DNA of 64,000 bases from Stegostoma tigrinum (lineage: Eukaryota), in contig NC_081394.1 in NCBI RefSeq assembly GCF_030684315.1, positions 5,550,163-5,614,162 on the forward strand, given 5' to 3'. Shown piece by piece: positions 26,387 through 64,000 of this stretch (positions within the stretch are counted from its first letter, which is position 1; every line of letters begins with the position of its first letter). The position numbers and the translations under genes are program-made. Below the pieces are notes generated by a model. The model made no database searches, was not told the DNA's origin, and saw nothing but the letters and a program-made list of their open reading frames with translations.

Positions 26387-28066
26387 GTCCTGGAATCTCC
26401 ACTGGAGCAAGAGTTGGATTGGGAATCGGGATTGTTGCTGTTTTTGTTGTTGTTGTACTTGTGGTTTATAACATTTGGAAGCGAAAAAGGTGGTGAGTTC
26501 TGGAATGTTTCACAATTTCCATGGTTACCCTTTTTTCTTTGTATGAAACTGCATGAAATGTTGTTGCGCTCTGCCCCTGTCCATTCCCTGAGCTGTGAGG
26601 ATGCTTCAATCCAGCCTGAGCAGCATCACCCAGTCACTTCCTGCTTGTCATCCTCTTGTTGCTGAATAGTCCTCATGGATTGGAACGGAGCAAGAGGTAT
26701 CCCACTGGAAAACCAGAGGATGGGGCATATATCAGGAATTTCAGGAGGTATTTAAGTAGGTGACTCACAATAAGTTGTTGCACAAGATGAGGGCTCATAG
26801 AATGAGGCGGCTATACAGAATGGACTGAGGATTGGTTAATGCACAGGAACAGAGCAGGAACGAATCGGTCATTTTCAGCTGTCAGGATGTAACTGGTGCT
26901 GTAAGGATCAGTGCTGGGACTTCAGTGACTCTCAATCTATATCAGCGACTGGGATGAGGGGATAGAGAATAATTGTCCCAGTTTGCTGATGATACAAAGC
27001 TCAGTGGGAAAGGAAGCTGCGAGGAGGATACAGAGGCTGCAAACAGGGATAAGCTGGATAATTGACTGGACCATAACTGTCGTGGCTTGTGTAAAAAAAA
27101 GTGAAGAGTGAATGGAAAAGGCTATTTTTACAAGGTGAAAGGCCAGTGAATGTGTCATTCAGAGGAAATTGTAGACAAATCGCCAAGTTACCATGTAAGG
27201 AATGAGGAAGGGGAATGGGATAGCCACCTTCCTTGCAGGTGGGTCAGAGGAAGGAGATCTTGCTGCAGGTTCTATAAGGATATGTATCAGAAGCAAACTG
27301 GAGGCCTGTGCACAGTCTTGTCTCTTTAGGAAATGTGTGATGTATTTGTTTTTAAGGGAATGTAAGAAAGTTTCACTCGAGTGAATGCTGGGATCAATGC
27401 ACCCTAAGCCACACCCACGCAGTGCTCATTGAAGCTGATTTTCAAGGAATGTCTCATTGCTTGTGTGTGTCTCAGTGTCAGATTTTTTTTGGTCATTCCT
27501 GTATCCCACGTTACAGCTGCTATATAACTCGCCTCAGCCTTTTCAAACCTTCCCTCGAAGTTGGGAATTGGAGGATTCCGTCATTAGGAATCCCATCCTG
27601 GCTTTCCTTGTTCCACTCAATATCCACATGGCTGTGCTCACCATCTTTCCACTCACAGTGGGATGAGGAACTGTTGCAGGGTTCTCTCCCTGTCTCGTGT
27701 GGCCCTCCCTCCGTCGGTCAGCACAGCTCCTGTGGAGTGTCCAGCCCATCGCCTCCTACAAGCCTCCTCTCCTCGACTCTCTGAGGGCTCCATCAGCGTG
27801 CAGCTCCTGCTGCCATTTTTTTTCCAGCTGCTATTCGTCCCACGCTGTTGAGTGCCATTTCATGGGTGTGTGCTTCTGAGCAGCTGCTTTACTCCCCTGT
27901 CCAAACAGTTGGATTGTTTTCACCTGAACTCTGCTGGTTTCTCTCTCCTAGGAATGAAAACAAAAGCTCTCATCAAGACCCTTCGAATGATCTGCTTGAA
28001 CCAAGTGAAATGGAGGTGCTTTCACCAGCATCACCCGATCATGCAGACACAGCGAATGGAGAATGA
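26387..28066 (+). pseudogene. Orphan but open TM exon (26387 to about 26492) and cytoplasmic exon (27952-28066) of the B7-like family
   Basis: GPGISTGARVGLGIGIVAVFVVVVLVVYNIWKRKRW|NENKSSHQDPSNDLLEPSEMEVLSPASPDHADTANGE*; canonical splice sites, phase 2 join; no family-type IgV exon upstream on this strand. Confidence 0.75.
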
Positions 28067-28979
28067 GCCCCTGGGCTGGGGGGTGGCTGCAGCTGAGTTG
28101 CTCTAACCCTGTCTCTGAATTAGCTCATTGCAGTAGCTGTTTGGTGATTGCCATTGGAGAGGCTGAGATCAGCAATGACTTACCAACGTCCAAGTCTGGA
28201 CCACCAACACAATCCCATACAGTTACGCCGCGGTTTTCACAAAGTCAGACCCATTCTGGAGGCTGTTAAAAACTGGCTGGGCAGATCGGAATCCTTGATT
28301 CCAATCCCAGCAATTTTTAATCCTGCACCCTGCGCTCACCACCTCGCCATCTCCGCTGGGGGGGGACAGTCATCTTCAACCCCATGGAATTTTTAGTGGA
28401 GTTGATGATTGATATTTGACGGATGCTGTGAACTTTAAGCTGCATTAGAAACCTTAAGTTTGAAAGCTATTATCCCACGCCTTCTCCATCCTGCTCGCTC
28501 AGTCCACACTCTGTACTGAACCAGTTCACCGGATAATTATGATGCCAAGCTTTAAATGATGATTGCAAAGAATTAGAAATCTGCTTTGATAAAGAACTGC
28601 TATTCTTACAACTCTGACATTGTCAATTCGACAGCAGAGCCACTTTATTGTCAGAAGCTTTCCCTCATTTCACACCCTCTTAACCTTGTCCAATTGAGCC
28701 TATAGATGCTGAAACAACACATCAAAATCAATGAAAACATACTTTAGTCCAACATAATAAACCCTGGCTGAGCTCATCAACTGGTGACTCTTAGAGTTCA
28801 GCTAAGCATTCAGAATGAGGCCTTCTGGAGAAACTGAGTTGCCTGACAATCTGTTTCATCTCCTTTCCCTACTTTTGCCAGCCACAGTCTCAGGAACATG
28901 CAGAACCACCTTTCACTGTGTGGATCATCAGTCACACCATGTGCTGATCTGTGAAAAGGTAACTTCCAGAATGTTCCAT

Positions 28980-30320
28980 GGACATTGTGACCAAGTTCTC
29001 AAAACTGGTATAAATTATTGAGTTACTTTCCAGAAGAAAATCAAAATGACCTGAAAGAGATGTTACAATCACATAGGGAGATATGTGGAAATAAACTGGG
29101 AAGGGCGAATCCAGCTCTGCATGATGTCCAATTCAGCAACATCCCAATAGACTTAGCGCTGTAAGGGTGATACAGGTTCGAGATGAGATTGAAAGCACAC
29201 TCAAAGACAACACAATTAATCAAAGTGAGTTACAGAGACTGGAGCTCACCCATAGTCATGATGCCAAAACCCGACGGTCCCCAGCAATTATGTGTGGACT
29301 ATTGCAATGTCTATGCAGTTACAAAGTCTGATTCATGACCTGTTCTGCATTTGGAAGACTGCATTGCGAAAGCGGGATGAGCAACCCTTATTTGTAAGTT
29401 GGACTTACTCAGAGGATAGTGTCTGGTACTTCTATACAAAACAACAAAAACAAGTTTGGATTTCATGCCACTGAATGAACTATATCAATTTAAAGTCAGG
29501 CCATTTGGTCTGAAAAAAGTGCTAGCGACATTTCCGAGACTAACCAGTTAAGACATTTCCAGATTACCCATTTGCCCGGTGTACAATGTCAAACTGGTGG
29601 TTTTTCATCAAACACGGAAGGAATATTTGCAGCATTTATCTGAATTATTTGATCAATTTCAGGAGCCAGGCTTGGTGATAAACCTGGCTGAGAGTGGATT
29701 CACCAAAGCCCAATTCACATTTTTGAGTAATGTTACTGGACGTGGACAGTTGGCCGCATGCATTGTAAAAACAAAGTTTATTGGCGGGTTTCCCATTGCT
29801 GAAGAGTGGGTTTTATTGGAAATTCGTACTGAATTTTAACAGTGTGGTTCTCCGCTGACTGTCTTATTGAAGAAGTGCAGTGTGCGGCAGATTGTCAGGA
29901 GGTACTCGACAGGCTGAAAGCTGTGTTAACCACCACCCCAGGGTTAGCCACAACTCATTACACAAAGCCATTCAAGGTGGTTATTGAAGTGAGTGTCGGT
30001 GCTCTACTCTTATAACAAGACAATGAGAAGATTGAAAGACCTCTCGGGTATTTCTCCAGGAAACTGAATAATCAGCAACAGAAATATTCCACGATTAAGA
30101 AGGAGCCCTTGAATTTGGTGTTACAACATTTATATTGCCTGTAATGTGTCTGACACAATTATATATCTTGATCATAACCCATTAAAGATTTTGGAGTGAT
30201 TTAAGGACAGAAATTCCAGACTGTTGAGATGGTGCTATTATCGCAGCCATTCAATTTGAAAATTATACATGTGACAGGATGAGAAACCGTTAATGCCGAC
30301 ACATTGTTGTGATTTGGATC
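28980..30320 (+). mobile_element. Ty3/Gypsy (Gmr1-like) RT-RNase H, decayed
   Basis: LLSYFPEENQNDLKEMLQSHREICGNKLG..WSSPIVMMPKPDG..YQFKVRPFGLK..LKAVLTTTPGL..KPFKV..ERPLGYFSRKLN..QQKYSTIKKE..DHNPL..RNSRLLRW. Confidence 0.9.
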
Positions 30321-30495
30321 AAGAAAGATGGAGAAGTTTGGTGGCAGGAGTCAACGGACTGAAATAGAATGAAGGAGGAATGGTTGCAATCAATCACTGG
30401 AAACAATGGAATGTACATGTATCACAGCAAACTAACAGAGTCAGACTTAGGGTTTTAACATAAACCATCTTTGTATATTGATGGTTCATTGTTTT

Positions 30496-31105
30496 AAAGG
30501 GGGTGTGTGACTGTTGTCACTTTAAAAAGTTAACTTTGTCCTGATTTTTTTTTAAAAATAGGTTGTCAAGGCAGAAGAATTGAAGTGGCTAGGGAGCTGA
30601 TCTAAGTTGGTAATTTAGGAAGATTTTAGGTTTTTTTAACACAGTTGTAACAATGGAAGGGGAGTTCTCCCAGATCAGGCTTTCTAGTTTTTTTTAGTTG
30701 CAGTAGTAATAAGATGTTTGAGTCCCAGAAAGGGTTGCAGGCTTCAGTCAATGTGACCGAGTCTGAAATCTCTCTTGAGTTGTTTCTTCCTGGATTGGAA
30801 ACCCGCAAATCTGTGTCTGAATTTACCTTTTTGCCAAGGGGTGTGTTTATGGGATGTTGCTAAATTGGAACAGTTAATTAGTAATAGGTACAGTGCCTGT
30901 TATACGATTAAGTTTTCGAATTGTCAAGTTATTCTAAATTCCTCTTTCTTTTGTTTGTATTTTAACTACAGTGTTTAAATAAATTCTGGTTTACTGAAAT
31001 CTGAGTGTTTGCAACACACCTGGACCAGCCACTTCACACCTACCTTTAAAACAGGAAATTGTGTCGATGCAAACTTCTTAAAATATTTTGAGGGTGTTCA
31101 GGCCA
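30496..31105 (+). mobile_element. Polypurine tract and probable 3' LTR of the Gypsy element
   Basis: AAAGGGGG followed by TGTGTGA shortly after the RNase H end; AATAAA near 30978; family intron homology resumes at about 31106. Confidence 0.55.
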
Positions 31106-32330
31106 TTTCTGTGGGAAGCTTAAAGCTCAGACTTTGAGGGTCTTCAACTCAAAGCTGTTTGTGCTGGATATTTGTCAGCACTGAGCAGCTAGACAGCACT
31201 TTGAATCACGTTTGCCACTTCGACACATGCACTGGGAGAACACAGCTGGATACTGGTCACTCGTTCACTCAGGCACATAAAGCACTGAAGGAGGCCATTT
31301 GGGCCCTCGTATTATCACTGCTGAAAAACGATCTGGCAACAGTTATTCCAGCATTTGGCTCTCGGCCCATCGTGCTGGTGGCTATAGCTACACAAATGTC
31401 TGGGGGCAGGCTAGTGGAACTGAAGCTCTGAACCTGAAGACTGAAATCGGTGTCGTACTGGAGGAAGTGAAAAGGGTTTGGACAGGGTGTAGGATTACTG
31501 ACAGTTGAATACATTGTGTCAGAATAAGGCAGCACCTGATGGTTTGAAAAGAGCCAAGGCAATGTGAAAACTCACCTCCCTCCACCACTAACCGGTTAGA
31601 CTTTCCTCTTCCTCTCCCCCCCACACCCCGTACATGCAGACTCAGCCCAAAATTGATGAAGAGGGTAGACTTAACAGTAATTGTAAAAACAATGCTGCCC
31701 CATATACAACTCACATTCACCTGTCACCCTGTGTTGGTCAGTGACATATCTTAGCTCCCAATTCACCTCTGCCTTGATTTTAATCATTTGTCCCTCAGGT
31801 CATGAGGGTGGAAGGCATTAACCCACATCGGAAATACAGAGGGAATTTTGTCAAAGAGGGAATAACGAATTGCTCCATTCCTCATCCCAGTGCTCAGTAG
31901 CACATCCCATTCCCATTGGATTCCTCCCCACTGTCACTAAGTTTGCTCAGTGTCCAAATGACACTATTCACGTCCCAGGGCTTAACCTGAACACATTAAG
32001 TGCCCAAATACAAACCGAAATAACTGCCGTTGCAGCTGGAAAAGCTCAGAAAATCTGGCAGCATCTGTGGAGAGAAATTGGAGTTAGTACTTCAGATCCA
32101 GTTTCACCTGGGCTGCCTGAAGGGAAGTGCCTTCCTTTCAGTTGTCTTTCTCTTCACCAGCCCCCCACTACCCAAAGCCAAACCTTTAATCACAGCTGAA
32201 ATGTCCCAGCAGTCACACCACTGTCCTGGAACAACAGCAACAACATTTAGGAGCAGCTTCCATGAGCCATGTCCCACCAACAAGAAAACACAGTGAGACC
32301 CTTTCTAACAGATTCACTGCTTGGAAAGTG
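31106..32330 (-). pseudogene. B7-like paralogue remnant B': signal-peptide exon (32274-32226) plus part of the following intron
   Basis: GHGSWKLLLNVVAVVP, both splice sites mutated (CAG to GTG, GT to GA); 31106-31260 matches intron sequence at 34130-34260 and 56050-56170; IgV exon absent. Confidence 0.75.
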
Positions 32331-32830
32331 TGTGGAGCTGGAGGACGTTGGTAACGTGTTAAACAATTATTCCACACCTGCCTTCATTCGAGATTTAGGT
32401 ACAGAATTTTTAAAGATGCTCTATGATGTTCTTAAGCAGATTGACTTTGGGAGTGAGGAAGTATGAGAGGTTTTGACAGGATTAAAGTTGGACAAATCCC
32501 TAGGACTGGATGTGTTGCATCCCAAGCTACTGTGAGAGAATAAGGAAGACACACAGGGACTCTGACCCAAATTTTCAATTTCTCTGGCCACAGGAGAGGT
32601 GCCAGAGGACTGGAGGATAGTTAATGCAGTTCCACTTTTCAAGAAGGAGATAAGCCAGGGAGTACAGACCAGTGAGTCTCACGTCAGTGGGAGGGAAAGT
32701 ATCGGAGAAAATTCTAAAGCAGGCAACTAATCTCTACTTGAAGAGGCATAATTTAATCAGGGGTAGTCAGCATGGCTTAGTCAGAGGGAGATCATGCTTA
32801 ACAAATGTGAGTGAATGTTTTGAGGGTGCG
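32330..32830 (+). mobile_element. CR1-like LINE RT fragment
   Basis: LTGLKLDKSLGLDVLHPKLL..SLATGEVPEDWRIVNAVPLFKK..YRPVSLTSVGGKVSEKIL. Confidence 0.85.
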
Positions 32831-33479
32831 ATCTGAAACGTCAACTTGCCTGCTCCTCCGATGCTGCCTGACCTACTATATTCCTCCAGCTCTACACTGT
32901 ATTGAAAATAATCCCTGAACTTGTTTACTGTGTTTAGGTCAACCATGTGGTTAACTGAGACTCTGGTTCTCTATTAAAGGGGCTTCAGACAGATTAACCC
33001 AGACTCTGGTTCCTGTATAAAACTGTGAAGCAGGTAGATGGCAGTGCCAGCCAAGGAAATCTCAACACAAGTAAAAAAATTCATTTCTCACTGGGACAAG
33101 GTGAAAGGCCAGGTTACTCCTCGTTCAATATGACTCTCCACTGACTCCCAATCTCATCAGCTTCCGAACAGGAGGGTACTGGTAAAATTGTAGCAATATT
33201 GTTCATACAGTATTCCAGAAAGACTAATACCAGCAGGAAACAGGAATCCTCAGAGTCCTGTATCTGAGGGACAGGAAGGGCAATCTCAGAAACAGAAATT
33301 ACAATTCCAGCGAGTTTAAGAACCAGTTTCAGGTAACAGTAACCCACACCACTCGCTATAACAGTCATTCTTTGGGAAAGTATCACACAGCATTTCAAAC
33401 CTAGCAATGTTCCTCTCAGACTATCCAGCATGATCGAATGTAAGAGCTGAAAACACATGCAGTAGTTTAGAAACAGACT

Positions 33480-34743
33480 TAACACGTATGACCGGTCCAA
33501 GAGTCGGATCTCGCTCTAAAGTAAACATCATGTGTTTAGTCCGGTGTGTGAAACAAACTGCAGAAATGCTCAAACACTGCAGACGAGTCAACTAATAAAG
33601 AATGTGCCATCTCAAGTCAGAGATAAAACAAAAGCTGAAACAAAGACCTTCAACTGTGACAGAGAGCTTGAAGTGAACAACTCCCTCCCATCGAAAGTGA
33701 TCCCCCATCCTGCAGTTAAACCTGACGCTGATACTCGTCCTCCTCTGTCTCCCTGAGGTCAGAGATCAGAACTGACCAGTTTTGCCTTGTTCCAGTTAAT
33801 CTTTGAACAAGTTTGTTCTGTTTCTGAACTTTGGGGCCTGGTCTCTCAAATCGTTGTTCTCATCGACAAACTTTTATATAAGTTCACATTTGGATGCTCC
33901 CCAGATTACCAGGAAATCAGAGTCCGAGGCAATTCCTTTTCATGTACAGGGCAGCACAACCTGCTCCCCAAGGAACCCAGAAACTGGGACAGGACAGTCA
34001 CCAGGAAAAGAGTGAAAGTATTTATCCACAGCTATAACCTCCCTGCTGGTACTTTACATGCCAAGCTTCTCATGGTTACGCTGCGATGCTGGATTTACAA
34101 GAAGCTCTGATCAGTAACTCACTGCTTTCATTTCTACGGAAGGGTTAAAGCTCAGAAATTCAGGAATCCCACCCAAAAGCAGCTTGTGCCAGATATTTGT
34201 CAGCACTGAACAGCTGGACCACACTTCGAATCACATGTTTACCATTTGGACACATGTTGGGAGCCTGGGGAGGAATGGAAGGGATGATGTACATTGTGAG
34301 GTGGAGTTTAGAAGCAAAAACATTACAGTGTTGGTGACTGTTTGCTCAGTGTCCAGATGCCACTGCCCACATCCCAGGGGTTAACTTGAAGACATTCAAG
34401 TGCCTTCCTTTCAGCCCAGTCCACCCCCATCTATTGCTCACAGCTGAAATGTCCCAGCAGTCACAGCACTGACCTGGAACAGCACCAATAACATTTCGCA
34501 GCAGCAGCAGTTTCTGTGAGCTCCGTCCCTGCAACAAGAAAACATAATGTGCCCCTTTCAAACAGATTCACTGCTCGGAAAGTTTGCCACAGATTCCCCT
34601 CCCTCCCTCCGTGTCCCCAGGTGGGAGACACTGACAGTAAATACCTGCATCTCCTTTCCCGGGACCCGGACTGGGATCAGGATCAGGGCCAGACACCGAC
34701 AGGAGACCGAGAGGTTGCTGAGAAACGTTATGTAAAACTCCAT
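33480..34743 (-). pseudogene. B7/butyrophilin-like single-IgV pseudogene B (exon 1 ending 34645, signal exon 34528-34474, IgV 34001 to about 33650, stalk about 33516-33480)
   Basis: IgV translation DCPVPVSGFLGEQVVLPCT*KG..VIWG..I*KFVDENNDLRDQAPKFRNRTNLFKD*LEQG fs WSVLISDLRETEEDEYQR; at least 3 stops, a frameshift, acceptor CAG changed to CTG. Confidence 0.9.
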
Positions 34744-35149
34744 GCTGGATGAAGATCAGATTGTGTCTCAGTCAGAAACAGCCCAGAGCCGATTCTGCGA
34801 TGAATAGAATGGATGAGAATGAGATTTATTGTCACTTGCACTCAAATTCCAAAAGAACAGGAGTAGAGGGGAAAGTTAACAGCAGCTCCTCCACACGGCT
34901 CCATACGATGTACAATGTACCTCGGTGCAAACCTACATACAAGGAACCTAGAGATAGCAGGAACTGCCGAGGCTGGAGAATCTGAGATAACACGCTGTGA
35001 AGCTGGATAACACAGTAATCCATTTTGCTTTTGCTGTTGGAAAGGTCCGTTCATGTGGGTCAGCGATGTTCTCACGGTTGGGTCCATTCGCGGTCCTTTC
35101 CCCTGCCCCACATGTGAGACTGTAGGGGAACAGTATGGGTCTGAACAGC

Positions 35150-35730
35150 AGAGGGCGCGCCAGCTCCCGGACTCTACCATTCGCACAGAGACGGCGGGGG
35201 AGTGAGAGATCTCGGTGCAGACTCTGTCGGAAAAGTCCGGGTCAAAGCTGCTTTTGGCCTGAAGGGATTCGAGTGAGACACCGATCCGAGAGGGGGGCTC
35301 CCGGGAAACTGTGAATCCAGAGCCGGGGTGTGGGAAGGAACGGCGGAGGGGTGGGGTGATCCGCAGACACCACCCCTCTCTCTACAATGTGGGTCAGGTT
35401 GTGAATTGTCACTGTTTGCAAACAACTTTCCGACCTGGCCAAAGCAAATGAAACTGAAAGAGCGATGACAGTGTCGAGCTGGATAAACGCAGTGGGTGCG
35501 GTGCATCTTAGGAGCACAAACACGTTTCAGGCCGAGACAACAGAAACTGCTTTGTGCTTTTCACCACTTTCTGAAGAACCAGGACATTTTGCTGCGATTT
35601 GGACGGTGGGGGCGCCTCTTGATGACAGATGCAATTTATTAGGGGAACAACACATTTCCCAGCGAACAGGGAACCCAGCGGGACATTGCATCAACGGCTC
35701 CGATAATGGACACTCTGCGCTTCCTCTAAC
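35150..35730. promoter_or_regulatory. CpG-rich putative bidirectional promoter between genes B and C, with ISRE-like (35450-35460) and kB-like (about 35293-35302) motifs
   Basis: High CpG density compared with the flanks; AAATGAAACTGAAAG fits GAAANNGAAA; GGGGGCTCCC fits GGGRNNYYCC; homologous block upstream of gene D (57290-57400) has GGGGACTCCC at 57331. Confidence 0.55.
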
Positions 35731-35823
35731 ATGGAGTTTTACAAAGTGTTTCTCAGCAGCTTCTCGGTCTCCTGTCGGTGTCTGGCCCTGATCCTGATCC
35801 CAGTCCGGGTCCCGGGAAAGGAG

Positions 35824-38800
35824 ATGCAGGTATTTACTGTCAGTGCCTGCCACCCGCGGACATGGAAGGAGGTAAATGCGGGGGAAAGCTTTCCGAGCAG
35901 TGAATGTGTCGGGAAAGGGGCTCACAGTGTTTTCTTGTTGCAGGGACATTGCTCACAGAAACCGCTCCCCCTGCTGCTCCTGCTGAGTGCTGTTTCTGCT
36001 GTTTCAGGTCAGTGCTGTGATCCTATCTGGTCCTGCCAAAATTTTATACGTTTCTAAAATCTTTTAAACTCCGATTAATGTATCGCAGGGAACCGTTAAT
36101 GATAAATAGAGCCATCCTGAACTTTGACCTTTCCACAGAAATGAAATGAAGCTGCGGTTGTTGTAATTTCAGCATCTCAATGTATCCATGTGAAGCTTGG
36201 GATGTAATGTACCAGCAGGGAGGTTATATCTGTGGATAAACACTTTCACTCTTTTGCAGGTGACTCGCCTGTGTCAGTTTCTGGGTTCGCTGGGGAGCAG
36301 GTTGTACTGCCCTGTATCTACAAAGGGAAAATCCCAGTCTCTGATTTACTGGTCATCTGGGGGAGACGCAAGACGGAAATTGTACACAAGTTTGTCTATG
36401 GAAATGATAATTTGAGAGAACAAGATACACAGTTCATAAACAGAACAAACCTGTTCAAAGATCAGCTGGAAAAAGGCAACTGGTCAGTTCTGATCTCTGA
36501 CCTTCAGAAGACAGACCAGGATGAGTATCAGTGCCAGATTTTCTGGAACACGACTGTAGGTGTATATTGGGAGCAAACTGAAATTGTTCATCTCTCAGTA
36601 AAAGGTGAGAGGTTTCTGTTTTAGGTATTGTGTATTTAATCTCTGATGCTATGGGGATAGCAGTGAAGGGGTTATGAGAAATGTGAAGACTTGGACTAAT
36701 AATCCAGAGAATAAAAATTCACATCCCACCATGGGACTTCCAGGGTTCAAATTCAGGGTATTAAATAAAAATCTGGAAAGAGAAAGAAGAAGAGTGACAG
36801 TGAAGATGTTGAATTGTTGTGAAACTAATCACTGACGACCCTTTAGGTAAGAACACTCCCAGCGTATGTTGCTGGATTACTGATTATTGTCCAAGATTCT
36901 ATAGACTCTGAAAGAGCTCCTATGGATTAGAGGGTAGCTAATGTAACCATACAATTTTTAAAAAGAGCAGGGAGAGAGAAAACAGGGAAATATAGACCGG
37001 TTAGCTTGGCATCTGTGGGGTACCACATGGCTTCAGTGCTTGAATCCCATGTATGCACACAATATATGAATGATTTAGATGAGGGTTTTAAGTTAATGTC
37101 TCAAAGGTTGCAGACAACACAAAGCTGGGTGGGAAGGTGAACTGTGAGGAGGATGCAGAGATGCTTCAGTGTGATTTGGATAAGTTGAGTGAGTGGGAAA
37201 ATGCTTGGCAGATGCAGATAATGTGGATAAATGTGAGGTCATTCACTTTGGAACCAAAAGCAGGGGGGCAGATAATTATCTGAACAGTGATAGATTGGGA
37301 AAGGGGGAGGTGCAACAAGACCTGGGTGTCCCTGTACACCAGTTGCTGAAGGTAAGCATAGCAGGTGGTGAAGAAGACAAATGGTACGTTGGCCTTCATA
37401 GTGACAGGAGTTGCGTACAGGAGCGGAGATGCCTTGCTACAATTGTACAAGGTCTTAGCGAGACCTGAGTTGGAAGAGCCTACCCCTGCTCCTGTATTTA
37501 AACCTGGTGTCCTTAACTAGTCTGTGTGACTCCAGTCTGACATTAACTGTGCTCTGACTTATTCAGAGCTTCAATCAGTTTCTGTTAAACCAGTAGAGAC
37601 GACAAAAACAATATAACTGAACTGACCCCGAGTTTGATTCAGGCCAAAACAAAGTCACACCAATATGTTATATAACCTGTATGTGCTATACTCAGAAATA
37701 TATATAAAAGACCTTCTGCCTCCAGAGGTTGGAGTGCAGAAGGTGCAAACTGAAGCGCCTTCAAGCAGCCTTTACATGACCCAGAGCACTGACTTGGAAA
37801 GTGTATCCCAGTTAGCCCAGGATCCTGTAACGATTCTCTGCACATGGAGATGTAAGCCGCTGGGAATGATCCTACCCAGGGAAACTCTAGAAACCTTCCA
37901 TTCTGCCCTTCACAGATAATGCAATCGTGTTGGAATTTTCACTTCCAATCCTGTTCCTGATCCCTTCTGATCAGTTTGACCCAAGCCTCATTCCTCCCTA
38001 AATGTGTTTCCCTAAAGCCTGATAGAATCTCTGAACATTTCTGTGGTTTGTTTCACACACCATACTAAACAGATGACTTTTTCTTTAGAGCGACCTCCTG
38101 CACCTGGACCGAACACACCTGTACCAGGTAAATCTGTTTCTAAACTACTGCATGTGTTGTCAGCACTCAGATTTGATCATGCTGGATAGACAGGGAGGAA
38201 CATTGGAAAGTTTGAAATGCTGTGTGGTATTTTCCCAAAGAATGACTCTGAGAATGAGTGGTGTGGGGCAGTGTTACCTGGAGTTGGTCCTTAAATTCCC
38301 TGGAATTTGTTATTTCAGTTTTTGAGGCCCCATCCTGTCTCTCAGATTGATTGTGTTCCACTATGCGTGACAATAAATCAGTGAAAAGCTGTGTTTCCGA
38401 GCAGTACAGGTAGATCATAGCAAGCAAAGCATGTACAGATCGAAAAGGTTTAGAGGAATACACGTTACATTGCAGGTTCCATTAATTGGGGCTGGAGCCT
38501 GTTCAACAGTCTGATAACGGCTGGAAAGCAGCTGTTCCTGAGCTGCTTGGACATGCGTTCAGGCTTCTGTATCTTCCGCCTGACAGAAGAGGTTGTAGGA
38601 AGTCATTACCAGGATGTTCTGGATCTTTGATGTTGGCTGCTTTTCTGTGGCCGTGAGCTGGTAAAAAATGGAGTCCGTGGATGGAGTGTTGGCTTCCATA
38701 ATGGTCTGGGCAGTGCACTCCACCTTCTGTAGTTTCTTATGTTTGTGGGCAGAGCAGTTGCCATACCAGGCCATAATGCACCCAGAGAATATGCTTTCAA

Positions 38801-41508: not shown

Positions 41509-43689
41509 AGCGCAGAGCCTTGTGCCAACAGCATCTGAGCATCTAGATCAAGCAGCTGGGGAACAAAAACTTTTGGGGAACGGGGCTGTCCAGCATTAAC
41601 CGAGTTTCCACTGCACTGAGCCTGGCTCAGGGAGGGGGATCTCAGCCCAGTGCTGTGGTGATCGAGTGATTGCTGGTGCAAAGTCTGAGCTCAGGAGTGG
41701 AATAAACAGTCGATTCCTACATTGCACAAAACCCTCTGAGCAGCACCATCTCAGGAGGGAAACTCCCACTGGAAGTGTTAGTTCTTTCCTGAAACAACTT
41801 TATCACTATTTCATCCTCAGCTTAAAATCTCAGACTGTGTCCAAACTCACTCTCAGGAACGGACAGGACCACCTTTAACTGAGTAACTCATTGATTGCTA
41901 CCTGAGAGGTTAAAAATGTCTAAACTGTCATTGAGTGTGTTGAAACATCAGGAAGTTTCTGAATTAATTTTGTTCTCGGTGTGTGTAATGCTCACAGTGC
42001 CCCATTTGTTGTCCATCTCAACTTGACTTAGTGCAGGCCTTATAGTGATGGTGCTCCCACAGTGGGGTACATGGGAAGAGCTTTCAGAAACTGTCTCTGC
42101 TGCATTATCTACTGGGAAAAGCTAGGAACTACTGCATTACCAGCAACTGTTTCATTTCCGGAATTCTGATTCTCAATGGTTGACAGATTGCAAATACATC
42201 TAGCCAAATGCAAGCACTTTATATTCAACAGTAAATTAAATAAATTAGACAACAAATTGTAAATATTATTTATCTCCTGTATTATTGTTCCTTTTCTATA
42301 TGTATTGTTTTCTCCAGTGTATGATCGAAAGGAAGTTGGCATGGATATGTATATCATGAATGTAGAACTGAGAATAATTCTAACCAATGCCCAGCAAACA
42401 GCTTGAAAAGCAGAAAACAAACCACAAGAGTTGAAAACACTTTCAGTGACTGACACTGCAGGTCACCCACAAAACTCCAGGTGCTGCTTGAACAACCTGA
42501 CTCTCTCTCACTCGCTCCAAAACAGACCAAAGAAATTGTTTCAACTCAGTGTTACAGATTCAGCAACAACATTTCACTGTCAGTGTCAACTATTCCCCGA
42601 GATACAGCTTGAATCTTCTCCCCATTTCTGTTTCCCTCCCTGTCTCCTGCTCAGCGCCCCTCTGCCTGTGCCCCCCTCCCTCCCACCACAGTTGTTTCCT
42701 TTCCCCAGCTCTTCATATCCCAGCACAACGTGTCTTTAGGAAGCAGACTCTCCCCATTCTGTCTCACTCTGCCCCTTGTTTCTCCCTCTCTCTCTGGAAT
42801 AATCCTGCAGTTTATGAACACACACGCACATACAAACGAGATTTCCTCCTTCTGGCATTCGAGAAAACCCAGATACTTCCAAGATCATTTCTCCAAACAT
42901 TTTCCTGACTCCTGCCCAAGTTTCTGTTTTTGCTTCCCATTAGGTCTTTTCCTTCTCTGGCAATTCCCGGAGATCCCAGCTTTTATTTTGTCTTCAAGCA
43001 CTCCATTAATCTTGTTGTCTTCTCCTTCATGAAGTTTAAATGTTAACATCTTGGCTCCCTAGCTGAGGGGCATATCTCTATTCCATGTCCCACTTCTCAG
43101 TGCCCAGTGCCTTGTGTGGCCTCTCCTTTTCTTTCCATCCCTTTCCCTGTCCCTGGCCCATGGTGACTCCCCCCTCACTTTCTCTCACATACATACACTT
43201 ACCCTCGATTTACCCCCATCCCGGGGAATTGGGCCTACGGGCCATGTGCAGGCTTAGTCCAGCTAGCTGCTCAGAGCACACCCCTCCCCTGAACTGCCTC
43301 TTCGTCGTTCCCCTCCTCCACCACCCTCGTGTGGAGCTGCCGTCTAAGAATTTTGCCACAGCTGCTCAATAAAGCGCTCCCTCCAAACTCCATCTTGGTG
43401 GGTCTGCTCAATGTGTCTTCTGGCACCTAGCAAACTCCCCGCTGATCCCCCAAACCCACACGCCACGCCACCCACCCCAATTCATGTTCCCCACCACTGC
43501 AGCAATAGAAAGAAGAAAAGATGAACTTGTTTCAAAAGTTGAATGAATAAAACAAAAAGGATATGGTTGTCCATGTGAGGCAGAATGGACAGGTCCGGGA
43601 ACCCAACACATTCTATCCCACTGCCTCTGACATCTTGAAGCATAAAACATCCTGGTAAACCACCTAGACAACTGTAACTCTTAAACAAA

Positions 43690-51125: not shown

Positions 51126-54100
51126 TCAGTTAGTGACGCACAGCCCCCTTCAGCAGAAGGCTTTGTTCTCCAGCCGCGCCATCCTGATGCTCAGGGCTCT
51201 GTGCCTCACCTGAAAGATTCACCTTTGTCACGGGGGCACATTTTGAGGCTTCATTTTGATCACTGGAGTGTTGGTTTTGACAACAATCCCTAGGAGAGAG
51301 AAAACAGCAGGTTCCAGGTTAAAACAAACCAACACTTTGGACATGTGGTAAAGGTGCTGATCAGGAGTACAGACCCACTATACAACACCCACCTTACTGG
51401 GGAGTAGTTTCTCAAGGTGACTTGTCGCTGCTGTGTTGGAGGCGAGTCTGGGTTCCTGACAGAATCATGGAGACAGCGAAGGCTACATCAGCATGCTGGG
51501 CATGAAACAGACTCATGGCAGCCGTGGAGTGGAGTTTGGGTCGCTGGCTGTATTGGTACAGGACCCACAGTGGCCTGGACACCAGCGGGGGTGAGATGGT
51601 TCCCAAGGTGGCACAGTGTACCGGACATGTAGCTGTCCACCTGGTCCATGGCCCTTGGTGGAGCACTTAACAAGGAGGACAGTAAAGTTGAATACTTCTG
51701 CTTTATTTCTTTATTCTTCTGCCTTTATATTCTATGTTTTTGGTTAATTCTCTGTGATTGGCAACACTATACAACTCTTCACTATATTTTGTAACAGCAT
51801 ACTCATGTCAATTGATAATTCAAATAAAATCAGTGTCTGAACCCTCGATGCCTGGGATAATGGGGGAGGTTTGAGCAATAACTTAGTGTCAAAAGTCCAA
51901 GAAAAAGTCCTGCACGTGCAGGAGAAGACCTAGAGGGGAGAGACACAGACAAAGCAGGTTTAGGTTGTAAATTGCTGAGCCTCAGAGCCAGGCAGCTGAA
52001 GGCACAGCCACTAACAGGGGAACAATGAAAATCTCAGGGATACAGGAGCACAGAGATCTGAGGGCTGTACAGCTGAGGATGGGAATGTTCAAATCTCTAC
52101 ATCTCATTGTTAAATAGATTTAACTCTATCGCACCCTCAACCACACAAAGTATAAACTTGAACCAGTTTATCCCTGTTTACAGCCTCTGTATCCTCCTCA
52201 TAGTTTGCTTTCCCACTGAGCTCTGTATCGTCAGCAAGCTGAGACAATTCCACTCTATGCCCCCATCTCAGTCGCTGATATAGACTGAGAGTCACTGAGA
52301 TCCCAGCACTGATCCTTGCAGCACTAGTAACATCCTGATAACTGAAAGTGACCCATTTGTTCCGGCTCTCCTTGTCCTTTAACTAATCTTCAATCTATTA
52401 CCGTTGAGCCCTCATCCTGTAGCACTACCCACTTTTGAATTCCTCCAGAAATTCCCAATCCAAACCCCATCCTCTGGTTCTCCAGTGGGATAATATTTGC
52501 TCCTTTCCAGTCCACGGGGACTGTTCAGCAACAAGAGGATGACAAGCTGGAAGTGACTGGAAGATGCTGCTCAATGACAGACTGGATTGAAGCATCCTCA
52601 CAGCTCAAGGAATGGACAGGGACAGAGCTCAGCAACATTTTACACAGTGTTATACAAAGATGAAAGAGTTATAATGGAAATTGTGGAATATTCCACAACT
52701 CACCATCTGTTTTGTTTTAGAACGACATAAACCCCAATTGCAATGAAGACAACAATAATGGTAGCAATTCCGATTCCCAATCCAACTTTTGCTCTAGTGG
52801 AGAATCCAGGACCTAGAGACAGAATAAAGCCAGGAATAGACTGGGACACACGGTCAAAACAGAGATCTTCAGCACCTAGTGTTTCGCAACCAGCCCCAGC
52901 ACAACCAGATTCCTGGTTCATTCTAGTCGTGGAGGAATGTGGGAGGTTAGATCCAAATAATCACACATGCACACAAGACCACCCCACACCTCCTTGTACA
53001 CACACACACTGCCTCACAACACAATCAATGCATGCTTTTCAACAGGGGTAGCTGGCTACTGACCAGATGCTGTTTCCTTTCATTCAATCCAAACATTTCC
53101 TGAAATTACTTTAATTTTCAAATAGATTTTTCTGTTGAAGATCCTACAGAATTGATGACAACATGTTTGACACCCTGGTCAATATCGTACTCCACTACCT
53201 TGATTGCAGGACTGCCTCCTCCAGACTATCACTGTGCCCTCACCTCTGGTGGGCCTGTCCTTCTAATGGGACAGGACATACCCAGGGATGGTGATAGGGG
53301 AGTTCAGGATGTTGCATTATTTCTGTCAGCGTGACTATGTCCCACTGTCTCCCAAGTTGGACCCCAGTTCCTAGGTGTTAGTGAGGGGCAGTTTGCAGGG
53401 TCAGCGGGGCTGGGTGTTCATTGCATCATTTGACGCCTGGCTCATAGCCAATAATCCATTCCATTTTATTGTAGATTTTTCTGTGTAGGGATTTGATAAA
53501 AACTGATTGATGTGCTCAGACAATTAAAGAGGGCAGTCAAATGTCCTCCAGGTTAATGTGGGACTGGAGTCACATAGACCAGACCATGTAAGGACGACAG
53601 GTTTCCTTCCCTTAAGAGACATGAGTGAACCAGCTCGAGTTTTACAACAGCTTCATAAACACTTTTGGGACCAAATCTCTATTTCCAGATTTTTCTAGAA
53701 TAAACTGACTTTAAAATGTAAAACAGCCTCTGATCTTTAACTTATGGCTGTGGGAAGATTAAAGCTCAGGGTTGTAATGTTTCTAATGACAGTGCAGTGA
53801 AGTGTACATGACAGATTTTGTGAACTGGAACCAGCACAGAGCAACACATGGAAATACGAAATCTCAACAAGATGAGAAAATGCCCTTCATCCCCGGGACT
53901 GGTTGGAAGGGCAGGTTACACCCGGATCAATATTACTCTCCACTGATTTCAACCAGCATCGCTCCCAATCCCATCAGTTTTCCCATAGGAGGGGTCTGGT
54001 AAAATTGCACTAAGATTCTCCATACAGAATTCCTGAAACACTAGTGCTAGAGGGAAGCCGGAATCCTCAAAGTTGTGTATCCGACGGACATGAAGGAGGG

Positions 54101-57100
54101 TCACAGAAACAGAGGTAACAATTAAGGGTGTTTAAGGATCAGTTCTAGGTAATGGTAACCCACACCACTCACTCTCAGAGTCATTCTTTGGCAAAATATC
54201 ACAGCATTTCAAACTTTCCAATGTCGCTCCCTGTCTATCCAGCATGATCAAATCTAAGCTGAAAACACATGCAATATTTTAGACACAGATTTACAGGTGT
54301 GTTCGGTCCAACTGTAGGAGCTCGCTCTAAAGAAAACATTGAGTATTGAGTACAGTGTGTGAAACAAACTGCAGAACTGTTTACAGACTCTATGGTGCTT
54401 TAGGGAAGCACATCCAGGGAGGAACGAGGCTCAGGTAAAACTGATCAGGAACAGGATTAGGAATGAAGATTCCAACAGGATTGCTTTAACTTTGATGGGT
54501 AGAATGGAAGTTTTCCAGGGTTTCCCTGAGCAGGATCATTCCCAGCAGATTACATCCCCCTGTGGGGACAATCCTCATGGAATCCTGGGCCGACGGGATA
54601 CACTTTCAAGCTCAGTGCACTGGGTCTTGTAAAGGCTGCTTGGGAGGTGCTGTGCGTCCCACCTTCTGCAGACTAACCTCTAGAGATAGAAGAGCCATGT
54701 TTCTGGGGAGGAAATGCAGGTTCTCACACCGATAACCCCTTCCAACACCCAGTTTGGTAATTCCGTCCTTCAGAGCTCAGCCAGCTCACACAGTGGGGTT
54801 TATTACTGAGTGACCCTTGGGGATGGACAGGGAAGAGCCACTCAGTAGATTCAGTGTCTCCGTGACCCTCAGTGCTTCCTCCAAGAGATGGTGAACATTG
54901 TGGGGCACACATTCATCACCTAGCGGGGAGCAGGAGGTGAGAATCAGCAGGAGCTTTCCAGGCCCATGTTTGACTCGAGGTTGACACAGACTCATGGGGG
55001 GTTTCGAGTTAACGTTGAGAAGACCTATCACTTCTCCTACCTGACTGTATCCCACTGGTGTGATCAGAAGCAGTTGTGGCAGTTCAGTTCGGGGTGTACA
55101 GGGAATCCTGTGCGTGTGGCACTGCCAACATACAGACACCAGACCCGAGATGTTAGTGGCAGGTCCATGCAGAGTTGTCTGGGCTGATCGCGTGTTTGTT
55201 ATTTCCTGATTCAATCCCTGGGTCACAGCCAGTGATCTGTTCACGTTTATTCCTGTTCCTCTTTGTAATCGGGAGATAGAAACCCACTGCCCTCTAATGA
55301 GGTTTGGCAAGTCAGCTAACTGCCCCCTAGGTGAATGTGGGACTGGAGTCACATGTGGACCAAACCAAGAAAGGACAGCAGGTTTTCTTCCCTAAAAGGG
55401 CCAGTCAGGGATTTACAACAATCTAACAGCATCATGGTCACTTACTAGGGACCAATTTTCTACTTCCAGATTTTTCTGTGAATATATAATTTAGACTGTG
55501 TAAGAATGCCGTAACCCCTGCACAAACACAGACGAAGAGATTTGTTTCGATACTGAATATCTTAAGGAGATAGCTCTCACCTCTTACAAAGAGATAGACA
55601 AAACCAGAATGCTCCAAAGAAAAATGCACACCCGTTCTATTTGAATCCAACACTGGTACTCATCTTGGTCTGACTCTCCAAGGTCAGAGATCAGAACTGA
55701 CCAGTTGCCATGTTGCAGCTGATCTTTGAACAGGTTTGTCCCGTTTCGGAACCGTGGTTCTTGTTTTCTCAAATCTTCATTTCCGTTGAAAAATTCACAT
55801 AACACTTCGTCCTCGAGTGTCCTCCATATCACCCATAAGTCTGAGACTGGGACATTCCCCTTGTAGGTACAGGGCAGCATAACCTGATCCCCAGTGAACC
55901 CAGAAACCGGGACAGGCAAGTCACCTGGAAAAGAGTTAAAGCATTCATCCACAGATACAACCTCCCTGCTAATACATTCCATCTCAAGCTTCTCATGGTC
56001 ACACTGATGCTGAGTTTATCAGGAGCACTGATCAGTAACTCAGTGCTTTCATTTCTGTGGGAAGATTAAAGCTGAGCTATGCAGGAACCTCAACTGAAAG
56101 CTTGTGCTGGATATTTGTCAGGACTGAGCAGGTGGCCAGCACTTTGAATCAAGTCTTCCATTTGCACACACTGGGATAGGAGGGAGGGAAGATGTGCGAT
56201 GGGAGGTAGAGTTAGGAGCAAAACACGGAAATATCAACTTAGAAACCGGTGGGGTTGAGGGTGGAAGTGGAAGTGCAACTGAGAATGTGCAGAGAGTTGG
56301 GGACAGGTTGTGTGCACTCAGAATTTCACTGATGACCCAGGGCCTAGTCCCCACTCCCACTCTGAGACAATTCCCATCTCCATTTGATTCCAGGACTTTC
56401 CTGGATTCCTGATCACGGTGGCTCAGCGGTTAGCACTGCAGCCTCACAGTGCCAGGGTTCAATTCCAGCCTCGGTTGGTTGTCTGTGTGGACTTTGCACG
56501 TTCTTCCCTTGTCTGCGTGGGTTTCCTCCGGATGCTCCGGTTTCCTCCCACTGTCCAAAGATGTGCAGGCTAGGTGGATGGGCCGTGCTAAATTGCCCGT
56601 AGTGTTCAGGGAGTGTGGGTTATAGGGGGATGGGTCTGGGTCGGATGCTTCAAGGGGCGGTGTGGACTTGTTGGGCCAAAGGGCCTGTTTCCACACTGTT
56701 GGGAATCTAATCTAATCTAATCCCAGTGCTCAGGGCCTACTCTGTCAACCCTGCGTCACAGTGTTGCTCAGTGCCCAGACGCCACTGTTCCCATCCCAGG
56801 GGTTAATCTGAATATACTAAGTGCCTTCCTTATGGCTCTGTCTCATGATCATGGTGTGGGATGTGAACCGACTGTACCCACTCCCTCAATGGCTCCACCT
56901 GCAGTTTACACCTTAAAGCAGGATAAATTCCTGATTCCCCTCACACCATTTAAATGTCCCAGCACTGACCTGGAACAGCAGCAGTAACATTTAGCAGCAG
57001 CAGGAGTAGTTTCAGCGAGTACTGTCCCTGCAACAAGAAAACACAGTGAACCCCTTTCCCAACAGATTCACCGCTGCGGACGTTCTCCCCGAATTCTCTC

Positions 57101-57235
57101 CCCACCCCTCCCTGTGTGGTGGGGTAGGGGGAGGCAAGTCGGTACCTGCAGCTTCTGAACATCCACTTCCTCGGCCGGCAACAGTTTGCCCGCAGCCTTC
57201 CAGAGCCTGAGGCCGGGAAGTTGGAAATCTCTCAT
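51126..57235 (-). pseudogene. Gene D: complete-structure B7-like single-IgV paralogue with two frame-breaking lesions; exons 57235-57146, 57027-56970, 55924-55581, 54326-54295, 52812-52704, 51289-51126
   Basis: GQYSLKLLLLLLNVTAAVP|GDLPVPVSGFTGDQVMLPCTYKGNVPVSDLWVIW..NGTNLFKDQLQHGNWSVLISDLGESDQDEYQCWI fs NRTGVHFSLEHSGFVYLFVR|ERAPTVGPNTP|GPGFSTRAKVGLGIGIATIIVVFIAIGVYVVLKQNRW|DCCQNQHSSDQNEASK..EQSLLLKGLCVTN*; IgV exon 344 nt (345 in C), stalk exon 32 nt (39 in C). Confidence 0.85.
56413..56722 (+). mobile_element. HE1-type SINE in an intron of gene D
   Basis: A/B boxes, conserved core, (AATCT)n tail. Confidence 0.9.
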
Positions 57236-60620: not shown

Positions 60621-60859
60621 AGGTCCCAGAGATTGTCAGGATGTTCCTGGTGCTGCAAGGATCAGTGCTGGGACATCAATGGCTCACAGTCTATATCAGT
60701 GACTGAAATGTCTCAGTTTGTTGATGATACAAACCCAGTGGGAAAGTAAACTGCGAGGAGGATATCAAGGCTGCAAACAGGGATAAGCTGTTCAGTGGTT
60801 TGGGCAATAACGGTGATGGATGATGAATAAAATCTGTCCAATTTGGAAGAATAGAGAAG

Positions 60860-61150: not shown

Positions 61151-61340
61151 TGTGTACAGTCTTGCAATGAATGGGCCAATACTCACTGGAGTTCAGAAGG
61201 AGAAGTGATTTTGTTGAAACTGAATATTGTGAGGTGTCTTCTAAGACAGAGATTGGGAGGAATTTCTTCTCTCAGAGGGTAGCAACTCTGGAATTCTTTG
61301 TCGCAGAGTGATGTCAAGGCTGGGTCATGCAGTATCCAGT

Positions 61341-62685: not shown

Positions 62686-62844
62686 GTAACAATATTGACA
62701 AAAGATGGATCATATTGAAAAATCAAATGGTGATCCTTGACAGTGGTGACCTCTTCAGCTAAAGCACGGAGCCTTGTGCCAACAACACCTGAGCATCAGG
62801 ATGGAGAACAAACCCTTCTGGGGAACAGGGCTGTCCAGTACTAA
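62686..62844 (+). pseudogene. Orphan last exon of B7-like paralogue E, with homologous upstream intron (60630-60830, 61970-62685) and 3' UTR (to about 63700)
   Basis: Acceptor CTGCTGGTTTCTCTCTCATAG as in C and D; ..VVTSSAKARSLVPTTPEHQDGEQTLLGNRAVQY*; early stops in the expected phase; no upstream family exons. Confidence 0.75.
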
Positions 62845-64000
62845 CTGAGTTTCTACTGCACTGAGTTTGGGTCAGGGAGGGGGAAATCAGCCCACTATTG
62901 TGGGCACCGAGTGATTCCTGCTGGGAAGTCTGAGCACGGTATTGGGATCCAAAAATACGTCCTCCTTTCTACAAATCCTTCTGAGCTGCATCATCTCAGG
63001 AGGGAATCCCCCACTGGAAGTGCTACCCATTTACTGAAAAGACTGTCCCAAGTATTTCATCCTCAGCTTCAGATCTCATTTTTACTGTTACAGACTGTGT
63101 CCAAACTCAAGTGTCAGTGTTGTACAGGATGACCTTTAATTGTGTAAACCATTGATTGGTACCTGAGAGGTAATAACTTATGAACGTTCATTGAGTAAAT
63201 GGACACATCAGGAAGTTTCTTAATTTGTTAACTTGTTCTCAGTGTGGGTGATGCTGTCAGAACTCCATTTATTGCCCATCTTGCTTTGCCACACTGCTGT
63301 CCTTACAGTGATGGCACTCCCACAGTGAGGAATATGGAAAGTGGCTTCAGAAATTCCGTCTGCAGCAGGACCTAATGGGCAAAGCCAGGAACTACATTAT
63401 ATGGAAACAGGAGGCTGGAAGAACACAGCAAACCAGACTGGAGGAAAGCAGAAGAAGTCTACATTCCGGGTATTACACCCCTTCAGGACAGGATGCAGCT
63501 ATTTTGTCTCTAACCAGGAACTACATTATTACCAGCCACTGTTTCATAGGCAGAAATCAAACTCTGAATGGTGTACAGACTGAAAGTACATCTGTCCAAA
63601 TATATCTGTATAGTAGTTCCTTTTCTACATGTACTGCTGCCTCCAAGGTGTAGTTAAAGGGAAGCTGATATGGATATAGGTTTGAGAATATGTTAGAGTT
63701 AGATATTTGCATTTTTCTTCAGTGATTAAAGAGAAGCTGGTGCTGATATTAATGGGTCTACAGTCTGATGTTTAATGACTCTGCTAGTCACTGCATGAAG
63801 AGACAAGCTGCTGCCTACAGGCAGTAAGACCCTCATATGAGTTGAAGTGAAACGAATTGGCTGAAGACTGGAATCAGTGATTGCGGGACTCTCAGGATGA
63901 GGCTGGGAATGACCATCCAGTCAGTATTCCTGCTGGTTGGGAGTTTGGGTCTTTGGAGAAGGGAGTGTGGGACCTCCAATTACCACGACTACAACTGTAA

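Follow-up and report, generated by a model that had tools for sequence, protein, structure and literature searches.

A fast-turnover cluster of B7-related genes lacking IgC in the zebra shark, with a transcribed hybrid member

Gene C, in the 64,000-nucleotide stretch of zebra shark (Stegostoma tigrinum) DNA analysed here (the window), is transcribed and spliced and belongs to a shark-wide, fast-turnover cluster of B7-related genes with IgV-stalk-TM structure, which probably encode surface ligands with a variable face for immune-cell receptors. Gene structure, splicing, IgC absence, B7-type fold, monophyly, duplications, a hybrid junction, pseudogenes and the location of protein variation were observed directly, and are taken up below.

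The translation of gene C is identical to RefSeq model P0012 (243 aa) and comprises a split leader, one V-set, a stalk of 13 Pro-rich codons, a TM and a 27-aa tail; by hydropathy, P0012 has the hydrophobic leader and TM of a type I membrane protein. All five introns were present as GT..AG joints in contigs from four public sequencing runs, whose record gives neither kind nor tissue, with three introns joined in 4/4 runs, stalk-TM in 3/4 and TM-tail in 2/4. Gene C is transcribed and spliced from IgV to stalk to TM without an IgC exon, which supports the earlier note on this DNA, whose reading would have been refuted if no copy were expressed. The V-set matched Pfam PF07686 (E 3e-10), its best PDB matches by both sequence and fold were the IgV domains of B7-H4, CD276 and PD-L1, and its structure model (pLDDT 87.7) has a predicted B7-type V-set fold.

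Table 1. Features of the window (coordinates within the window)
Feature	Position	Strand	Detail
Inverted-duplication arm	1..37465		megablast of 440-kb region; ~98-99% identity
38-bp satellite array	8803..23389		upstream of relic A
Relic A	26387..28066	+	TM exon 26387-26492, tail exon 27952-28066
Relic B'	31104..32275	-	leader exon 2 (32226-32275), fragment of pre-IgV intron
Pseudogene B	33477..34743	-	leader exons 34645-34743 and 34474-34528; IgV 33654-34001
Gene C	35731-41508	+	6 coding exons, GT-AG introns
C leader exon 1	35731-35829	+	sequence, spliced joints
C leader exon 2	35944-36007	+	sequence, spliced joints
C IgV exon	36260..36604	+	114 codons, phase 1-1, three N-glycosylation sequons
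C hybrid junction, IgV-stalk intron	37465..37494	+	identity comparison with A-type tandem genes
C stalk exon	38089..38127	+	13 codons, Pro-rich
C TM exon	40003..40102	+	no charged residue; N-terminal half Gly-rich
C tail exon and 3' UTR	41424..42260	+	stop 41506-41508 after +1 frameshift
Pseudogene D	51130..57166	-	exons in the rows below
D tail and TM	tail 51130-51289; TM 52704-52812	-	
D stalk	from 54326	-	donor deleted
D IgV	55581-55924	-	1-nt deletion just after F-strand Cys
D leader exons	one ending 57146; other 56970-57027	-	
Relic E	62686..63601	+	frameshifted tail exon 62686-62844, plus 3' UTR

The absence of IgC extends well beyond gene C. A profile of 8 shark B7/BTN IgC exons, on which positive controls scored high, gave no match in 440 kb (best E 0.18), and a Pfam scan of the family proteins returned no B30.2, IgC or heptad domain, so both absences claimed in the earlier note held. 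The family has the membrane-distal B7-type IgV of canonical B7 proteins and lacks their membrane-proximal IgC. A single IgV, also claimed, describes gene C but not the family, in which 13/44 database models have two IgV domains and two from the horn shark reach three. The short tail without Tyr is likewise true of gene C and not a family trait: a +1 frameshift has cut short a conserved tail of ~60 aa, whose C-terminus survives out of frame in the 3' UTR of gene C. The longer tail is kept in 29/37 TM-bearing relatives, a conservation that suggests an intracellular role and speaks against the ligand reading given below. The family motif ends the tail exons; no ITIM or ITAM was found in the family tails.

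All six traces described earlier (A, B', B, C, D and E) are present on the strands claimed, and within the window gene C is the sole intact gene, the other five being relics. Relic A has neither leader nor IgV and is a partial copy of an 11.3-kb tandem unit; an A-type TM-to-tail joint occurs in the public runs, and its source may be complete copies in the mirror arm of an inverted duplication. Leader exon 2 of B' has two dead splice sites and no IgV follows it. The IgV of B is broken by 4 stops and a frameshift, and its acceptor is dead; B also has a decayed stalk and neither TM nor tail, and zero cover of its IgV bin in 4/4 public runs does not argue for silence. Pseudogene D has an intact orthologue, P0036, in the whale shark; loss of its start codon was considered and rejected, as an in-frame ATG is present upstream. 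No TM, stalk or IgV was found for relic E. Introns and exons of the paralogues are ~70-83% alike, which upholds the shared exon structure and introns proposed earlier, but the sharing does not reach the tail and UTR of A, whose homology to the C, D and E counterparts goes no further than ~25 nt.

Gene C is itself a hybrid. Its identity to the A-type tandem genes is 98-99% upstream of a junction in the IgV-stalk intron and about 75% downstream, so that its leader and IgV are common to three tandem genes bearing a different stalk, TM and tail. Besides the 5' half of C, the window arm of the inverted duplication contains A, B' and B, three relics that come from this one recent, ~99% duplication. 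The mirror arm (C53:5,444,219-5,504,007) contains three complete copies of the 11.3-kb unit and a satellite array of just ~1.8 kb. Identity between the arms and among the tandem units is 98-99.5% (megablast, 440-kb region) and most copies are dead, as would be expected if the recent copies were mostly errors of assembly or noise from neutral duplication near a few genes that evolve slowly; omega of 0.3-0.5 among near-identical copies, where defined and from few changes, would also fit. We regard this as very improbable, because satellite length and unit number are not the same in the two arms, splice joints to C-type and to A-type tails occur in independent runs (X3 has both), older paralogues are 70-80% alike, and other sharks also have multi-copy clusters. 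Recent duplicates in tandem units and inverted arms, pseudogenes, and clades both shared and species-specific were all found, as the earlier description of a birth-and-death cluster implied.

The cluster is bigger than that description allowed. It lies on a 19-Mb chromosome (C53), where the family spans ~360 kb between KCNN/SMG9 on one side and HAUS5 on the other, with 7/20 examined IgV exons intact. Other immune genes lie nearby, namely exons of an Ig-C2/SRCR receptor, which is embedded within the cluster, and an IRG GTPase. Exons in L073 were considered as IZUMO1-like, an identity for which a PDB search gave no match. A PRDM gene on C53 was dropped as a marker of a human 21q22-type region, its exons matching the PRDM7/9-like part of P0049; TRAPPC10 and RRP1, located on C14, also count against that reading. 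By its markers SMG9, CaMBD, IIGP and HAUS5, the region resembles human 19q13, the site of the CEACAM and nectin clusters. This setting, along with the one to three tandem IgV domains, the conserved tail and hybrids that join one IgV to different tails, could indicate adhesion molecules or pathogen-facing receptors or decoys that behave like CEACAMs or nectins, with a face that tracks microbial adhesins or viruses and a tail that signals or anchors. We think this unlikely, given that the IgV is B7-type, that neither CEACAM nor nectin was among the 60 PDB matches listed, and that the tails have no ITIM or ITAM.

Nine other shark species have relatives, which carry between one and three IgV domains. 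The family forms a single clade with a long stem (support 99/97). In the wider B7/BTN tree, built without human or chicken BG sequences, its best-tree sister is the linked ICOSL-like gene L041 (84/71), and the two nest in a group with L042, L043 and L055 (85/91). L041 and L042 have CD80-like C2 exons and lie on the same chromosome as the cluster, the ICOSL-like/CD80-like IgV-IgC genes being 0.45-0.55 Mb from its edge; relatives of L041 in two bamboo/epaulette sharks lie on contigs equal in size to those bearing family members. A cross-species tree of 77 rows, made by a quick method, contained both orthologous lineages and species-specific clades. Because orthologous lineages are shared between species, the expansion is shark-wide and old, and the earlier term "lineage-expanded" does not stand. 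No ray, chimaera or bony-fish member was among 44 matches from 84 candidates, which is weak evidence on range; among the best 150 representatives, just 10 of them named, non-family domains scored <= 70 bits, in a list ordered by whole-protein score, crowded with multi-domain proteins and so weak for range.

The family has no 1:1 orthology with a known single-copy gene, in agreement with the earlier note. VTCN1 (B7-H4) and CD276 (B7-H3) are its top sequence and fold matches, from which the RefSeq labels "VTCN1-like" and "CD276 antigen homolog" derive, but better shark candidates exist for both. VTCN1 orthology was rejected, the shark gene L045 matching VTCN1 better (79 vs 57 bits for C), and the AU test did not reject a grouping of the family with the VTCN1/HHLA2-like L045 (p-AU 0.10). 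Grouping with L056, which from its likeness we take to be shark CD276, was rejected (p-AU 0.017). Like ICOSL, CD80 and CD86, the family has a B7-type IgV, a type I membrane protein and a motif-poor tail; those genes are IgV-IgC and low-copy, whereas the family is multi-copy, IgC-less and accompanied by pseudogenes, and its sister support is weak. MOG, a single-copy gene linked to the MHC whose product contains a second hydrophobic segment, shares the single IgV and the B7/BTN group and was a weak match here (E 1e-5).

The earlier label "B7/butyrophilin-like" keeps its first half. "Butyrophilin-like" is the weaker term, because shark BTN-like IgV-IgC genes form their own array on C44 and another clade in the best tree, although the AU test did not reject them as sisters of the family. 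A translocated, truncated lineage of butyrophilin, MOG or BG type, whose proteins serve gamma-delta-type T cells as ligands, would be consistent with PDB matches to MOG and BTN1A1 (E 1e-5 to 7e-5), with the p-AU of 0.145 for the family and shark BTN as sisters, and with the single IgV and hybrid-gene behaviour described for chicken BG (PMC4046983; PMC5043582). It is nonetheless improbable in our judgement, since the BTN-like genes stand apart, B30.2 and a heptad tail are absent from the family, and B7-H4, CD276 and PD-L1 outscore MOG and BTN1A1 in the PDB search.

Chicken BG is, by analogy, the closest known system. Its genes are described as having single V-type domains with a TM in a tandem cluster that expands, contracts and forms hybrid genes (PMC4046983), and cassette exchange in the loops (PMC5043582). 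The shark family is likewise clustered, with IgV-TM proteins (single-IgV in C) and hybrid genes. BG genes are MHC-linked and encode disulfide-linked dimers whose tails are heptad-repeat coiled coils, whereas in the shark family the stalk is Pro-rich, the tail is non-heptad, no extra Cys is conserved, the IgV domains number one to three and the genes lie apart from the shark BTN array. Neither a heptad-repeat tail (the tails lack repeats) nor the CDR1 dimer cysteine is present in the shark family, the two canonical Cys being the only invariant ones in family alignment A1. We infer an origin independent of chicken BG, whose sequences stand outside the trees.

Protein variation is concentrated on one side of the IgV. 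Between C and D, 18/27 residues differ at IgV positions 33-59, compared with 9/32 before and 6/32 after; the difference from the C-strand Trp to the D strand noted earlier is thus real in C-C', while that after the F-strand Cys is partly the D frameshift. Across 25 aligned IgV domains, variation was highest at C-C' and F-G (mean entropy 1.69 vs 0.53), a contrast that is partly circular because the face was delimited after the alignment was seen. M2a was preferred to M1a in 15 exons (p = 2e-4; sites R36, T38 and G100), with p = 0.074 in the 7 intact exons alone, and face omega was about 1.0-1.1 once the face had its own synonymous rate. Four-fold sites also differed more in the face (38/77 vs 96/533, from pooled non-independent comparisons), a pattern indicative of segment exchange, relaxed constraint or misalignment. 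The diversifying binding face of the earlier note is therefore variable in protein, and positive selection on it (dN/dS > 1) is weakly supported.

These observations fit a family whose likely origin is a B7 IgV exon separated from its IgC, possibly from the linked ICOSL-like/CD80-like genes, with the stalk putatively replacing IgC as a spacer. The family turns over as genes are duplicated in tandem and inverted copies, form hybrids and decay. The proteins are likely surface ligands whose variable front (GFCC') face is directed towards receptors on immune cells, with a CD28-family or other Ig receptor as the putative partner; a ligand rather than receptor role is suggested because there is no cytoplasmic Tyr motif and no charged TM residue. 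Immune function is inferred from sequence. More tentatively, sharks might possess an IgC-less B7 branch in a 19q13/LRC-like region, in which leader-IgV cassettes are swapped onto different stalk-TM-tail modules and an IgV is even replaced by an unrelated Cys-rich domain, giving a variable repertoire that would be the missing ligand set for shark CD28-like orphan receptors or the embedded Ig receptor, so that sharks would have arrived at a BG-like system on their own, starting from the ICOSL/CD80 side; we consider this broader picture possible but doubtful. The Cys-rich exon had neither a Pfam nor an IgC-profile match, and its modelled domain is a low-confidence beta-sandwich (pLDDT about 60 in residues 71-120; best Z 7.1 against known structures, Foldseek E >= 0.007).

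B7 ligand numbers have been described as generally stable across jawed vertebrates, with expansions in turtles and bichirs (PMC13262535), and additional CD28-family receptors occur in sharks, their ligands as yet untested (PMC11599192). No description of the cluster was among the publications listed in our literature searches, although supplements of CD28 and IgSF papers may mention it. The pattern as such, in which an Ig cluster expands and includes hybrids and pseudogenes, is already familiar. One family would account for the conflicting RefSeq names given to its members (CD276, VTCN1, ICOSL, CD86, MOG, SCN4B and MXRA8), and a shark-wide, IgV-only, fast-turnover offshoot of B7 would offer concrete ligand candidates in the oldest adaptive immune system.

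Gene C, the one intact member within the window, has six coding exons separated by GT-AG introns; its product is exactly the 243-aa database model P0012 (Stegostoma tigrinum LOC125448528), and the IgV exon is 100% identical. All five splice joints occurred in contigs from public runs, the three 5′ joints in 4/4 runs, stalk-TM in 3/4 and TM-tail in 2/4. The TM-tail joint of the A-type genes, 11.3-kb tandem relatives, occurred in 3/4. These contigs derive from four runs in two studies without recorded kind or tissue, and near-identical paralogues can mix in them. Open frames with intact splice sites occurred in 7/20 IgV exons or fragments examined. That the cluster is mainly artefact or neutral copies we regard as very improbable.

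The earlier note had described an IgV domain without IgC, and this architecture was borne out: a search of 440 kb with a profile built on 8 IgC exons from sharks detected no IgC between the gene C IgV and TM (best E 0.18), and IgC-bearing control proteins scored high. The gene C tail is shortened by a +1 frameshift, which leaves the conserved family C-terminus out of frame. That C-terminus is retained in 29/37 TM-bearing relatives, and none of the 37 carries a cytoplasmic Tyr motif. Gene C is spliced in public runs and lacks an IgC exon, and the family is no 1:1 orthologue of a known single-copy gene; none of the three objections that the earlier note named in advance therefore applies.

Relatives numbered 44 (60-100% identity) in ten shark species including the zebra shark, spanning carpet sharks, mackerel sharks, catsharks, the horn shark and a sawshark; in most species the matches fall on contigs of a single length, which fits a single cluster per species. 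Two IgV domains are present in thirteen models, some possibly by read-through, and three in two models from the horn shark. Automatic annotation gives the relatives conflicting names (CD276, VTCN1, ICOSL, CD86, MOG, SCN4B, MXRA8, BTNL2). In a 77-row quick tree some lineages were orthologous between carpet sharks and other clades were confined to one species, as in birth-and-death evolution. The basking shark model P0049 joins a family gene to PRDM7-like sequence, probably an annotation fusion reflecting linkage.

Among PDB sequences gene C matched B7-H4 (57 bits), CD276 and PD-L1, in that order, then MOG and BTN1A1; the top match of an AlphaFold model of its IgV (pLDDT 87.7) was likewise B7-H4. 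Human sequences were absent from our trees. The careful tree had 30 rows: eight from the family, 17 other B7/BTN-type IgV exons from the zebra shark, an additional ICOSL-like domain and four domains of bony fish. The family formed one clade (99/97), sister to the ICOSL-like locus L041 (84/71), annotated as ICOS ligand-like in four sharks; both sat within a group (85/91) that also held loci L042, L043 and L055, and the BTN-like genes of contig C44 lay elsewhere. AU tests did not reject family plus BTN (p = 0.145) or family plus locus L045 (p = 0.10); L045 matched B7-H4 better than gene C did (79 bits). A grouping with L056, which by its likeness we take to be CD276, was rejected (p = 0.017). 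That the products are BTN/BG-type ligands we consider quite unlikely. We read L041 as ICOSL-like and L042 as CD80/86-like; the region of both resembles human 19q13, and the related L043 lies on contig C50. L041, L042 and L043 are possible extra B7 ohnologues.

We fetched C53, the chromosome carrying the window, at 5.22-5.81 Mb and mapped gene C exons across it; the 80- and 70-kb flanks beyond the 440-kb core held no family exons. The cluster is flanked by SMG9, a KCNN calmodulin-binding exon, HAUS5, BTG and an IRG GTPase. In humans, SMG9, KCNN4, IRGC and HAUS5 lie on 19q13, which is not known to hold a B7 gene.

Features of the cluster and related loci (blank cells, no value reported)
Feature	Location	Strand	Description
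Window	C53:5,550,163-5,614,162		on 19,005,769-base contig
Family exons	C53:5.304-5.666 Mb
First mirrored pair	window 1-37,465; C53:5.444-5.504 Mb		98-99% identity
Second mirrored pair	C53:5.511-5.525; 5.532-5.545 Mb		99.3% identity
Tandem repeat	window 6031-6528		65 bp, 7.7 copies
Satellite	window 8803-23389		14.6 kb, 38-bp units, higher-order repeats; mirror arm counterpart only ~1.8 kb
A		+	fragment: TM, tail
Stretch 3′ of A tail exon	window 27952-30817		~2.9 kb, near-continuously covered by public contigs
B'		-	dead leader exon
B		-	four stops, frameshift, dead acceptor, no TM
C leader		+	split; second Met at residue 32 would yield conventional signal peptide
C V-set domain		+	114 aa
C stalk		+	13 codons, Pro-rich
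C TM		+	uncharged
C tail		+	27 aa
D		-	344-nt IgV exon, 1-nt deletion just past F-strand Cys, then stop; stalk donor deleted
E		+	frameshifted tail and UTR
L003-L007	C53:5.357-5.399 Mb		receptor-like gene within cluster: tandem Ig-C2 exons (5.4-kb repeats), SRCR exon, TM-like exon
L026:991-1257	C53:5,630,991-5,631,257	+	~17 kb right of window; phase 1-1 exon, ~89-aa Cys-rich domain
L041	C53:4.86 Mb		IgV-IgC gene
L042	C53:4.75 Mb		IgV-IgC gene
L061	C53:4.205-4.215 Mb		PRDM7/9-like exons
L040	C19:40,788,020-40,788,358	-	stray single family IgV exon, one stop; nearest, second IgV of whale shark P0001
BTN-like array	C44:21.8-26.0 Mb		large; IgV(-IgC) genes, at least about 20 IgV matches

The six paralogue traces reported earlier exist, but only C is intact, the other five (A, B', B, D and E) being relics; the intact orthologue of D is whale shark P0036 (99 SH-aLRT). 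The mirror arm holds three complete A-type genes (P0013, P0192) and a partial unit matching that of the window, and relics A, B' and B thus stem from duplication and did not arise independently. The second mirrored pair places the palindrome centre near 5.528 Mb. Gene C and the A-type genes are 98-99% identical up to base 37,465, in the IgV-stalk intron, and ~75-84% beyond; they therefore have a common leader and IgV and unlike stalk, TM and tail, and one of them is a hybrid. Six genes appear complete: C, the three A-type genes, F (P0193; its mirror copy has lost most of the tail exon) and G (first exon not located). The covered stretch beside A suggests that the A-type genes have a long 3′ UTR with no relation to that of the family; its source may be a mobile element, since decayed. 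The receptor-like gene is a possible linked partner or LRC-type receptor.

The Cys-rich exon is single-copy in the zebra shark genome, where its host family gene looks broken, and the domain had no Pfam match. It replaces the IgV in epaulette and basking shark models and precedes it in a whale shark model; in all of these (P0120, P0128, P0031) the leader, stalk, TM and tail are those of the family. Structure prediction, at low confidence, points to a beta-sandwich that may be a degenerate Ig domain.

Across 25 aligned domains, mean entropy was 1.69 at positions 30-46 and 90-110, a boundary drawn after seeing the alignment, and 0.53 elsewhere; these positions are the C-C' and F-G strands in the structural model. 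With our own codon-model implementation and a fixed tree, M2a was favoured over M1a for 15 exons (p = 2e-4; 12% of sites, omega 3.3; R36, T38, G100), and p was 0.074 for the 7 intact exons only. Omega for the face was 1.6-1.8 when all sites shared one synonymous rate and 1.0-1.1 when the face was given a separate one. Four-fold sites differed at 38/77 in the face and 96/533 elsewhere (non-independent comparisons); exchange of segments or a loosening of constraint could therefore account for as much as selection. The variable strands form the front sheet, via which B7 ligands bind CD28-family receptors. A variable face would also suit an adhesion or pathogen-facing receptor, which we think rather unlikely beside the B7 matches. 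What the products bind, in which cell type they act and whether they activate or inhibit are inferred.

The shark cluster is real and expressed, although its kind is familiar and most of its members in the window are relics. It is apparently undescribed: passages of PMC12151841, PMC10751288 and PMC3964593 contain nothing on this family, and a literature search, with subscription papers and supplements outside its scope, found no description. Structure, splicing and turnover were shown, and we consider it fairly probable that the products are IgC-less B7-type ligands, which the Pro-rich stalk would hold away from the membrane, which would be recognised via the variable front face of the IgV, and whose gene set would be renewed through duplication and hybrid formation.
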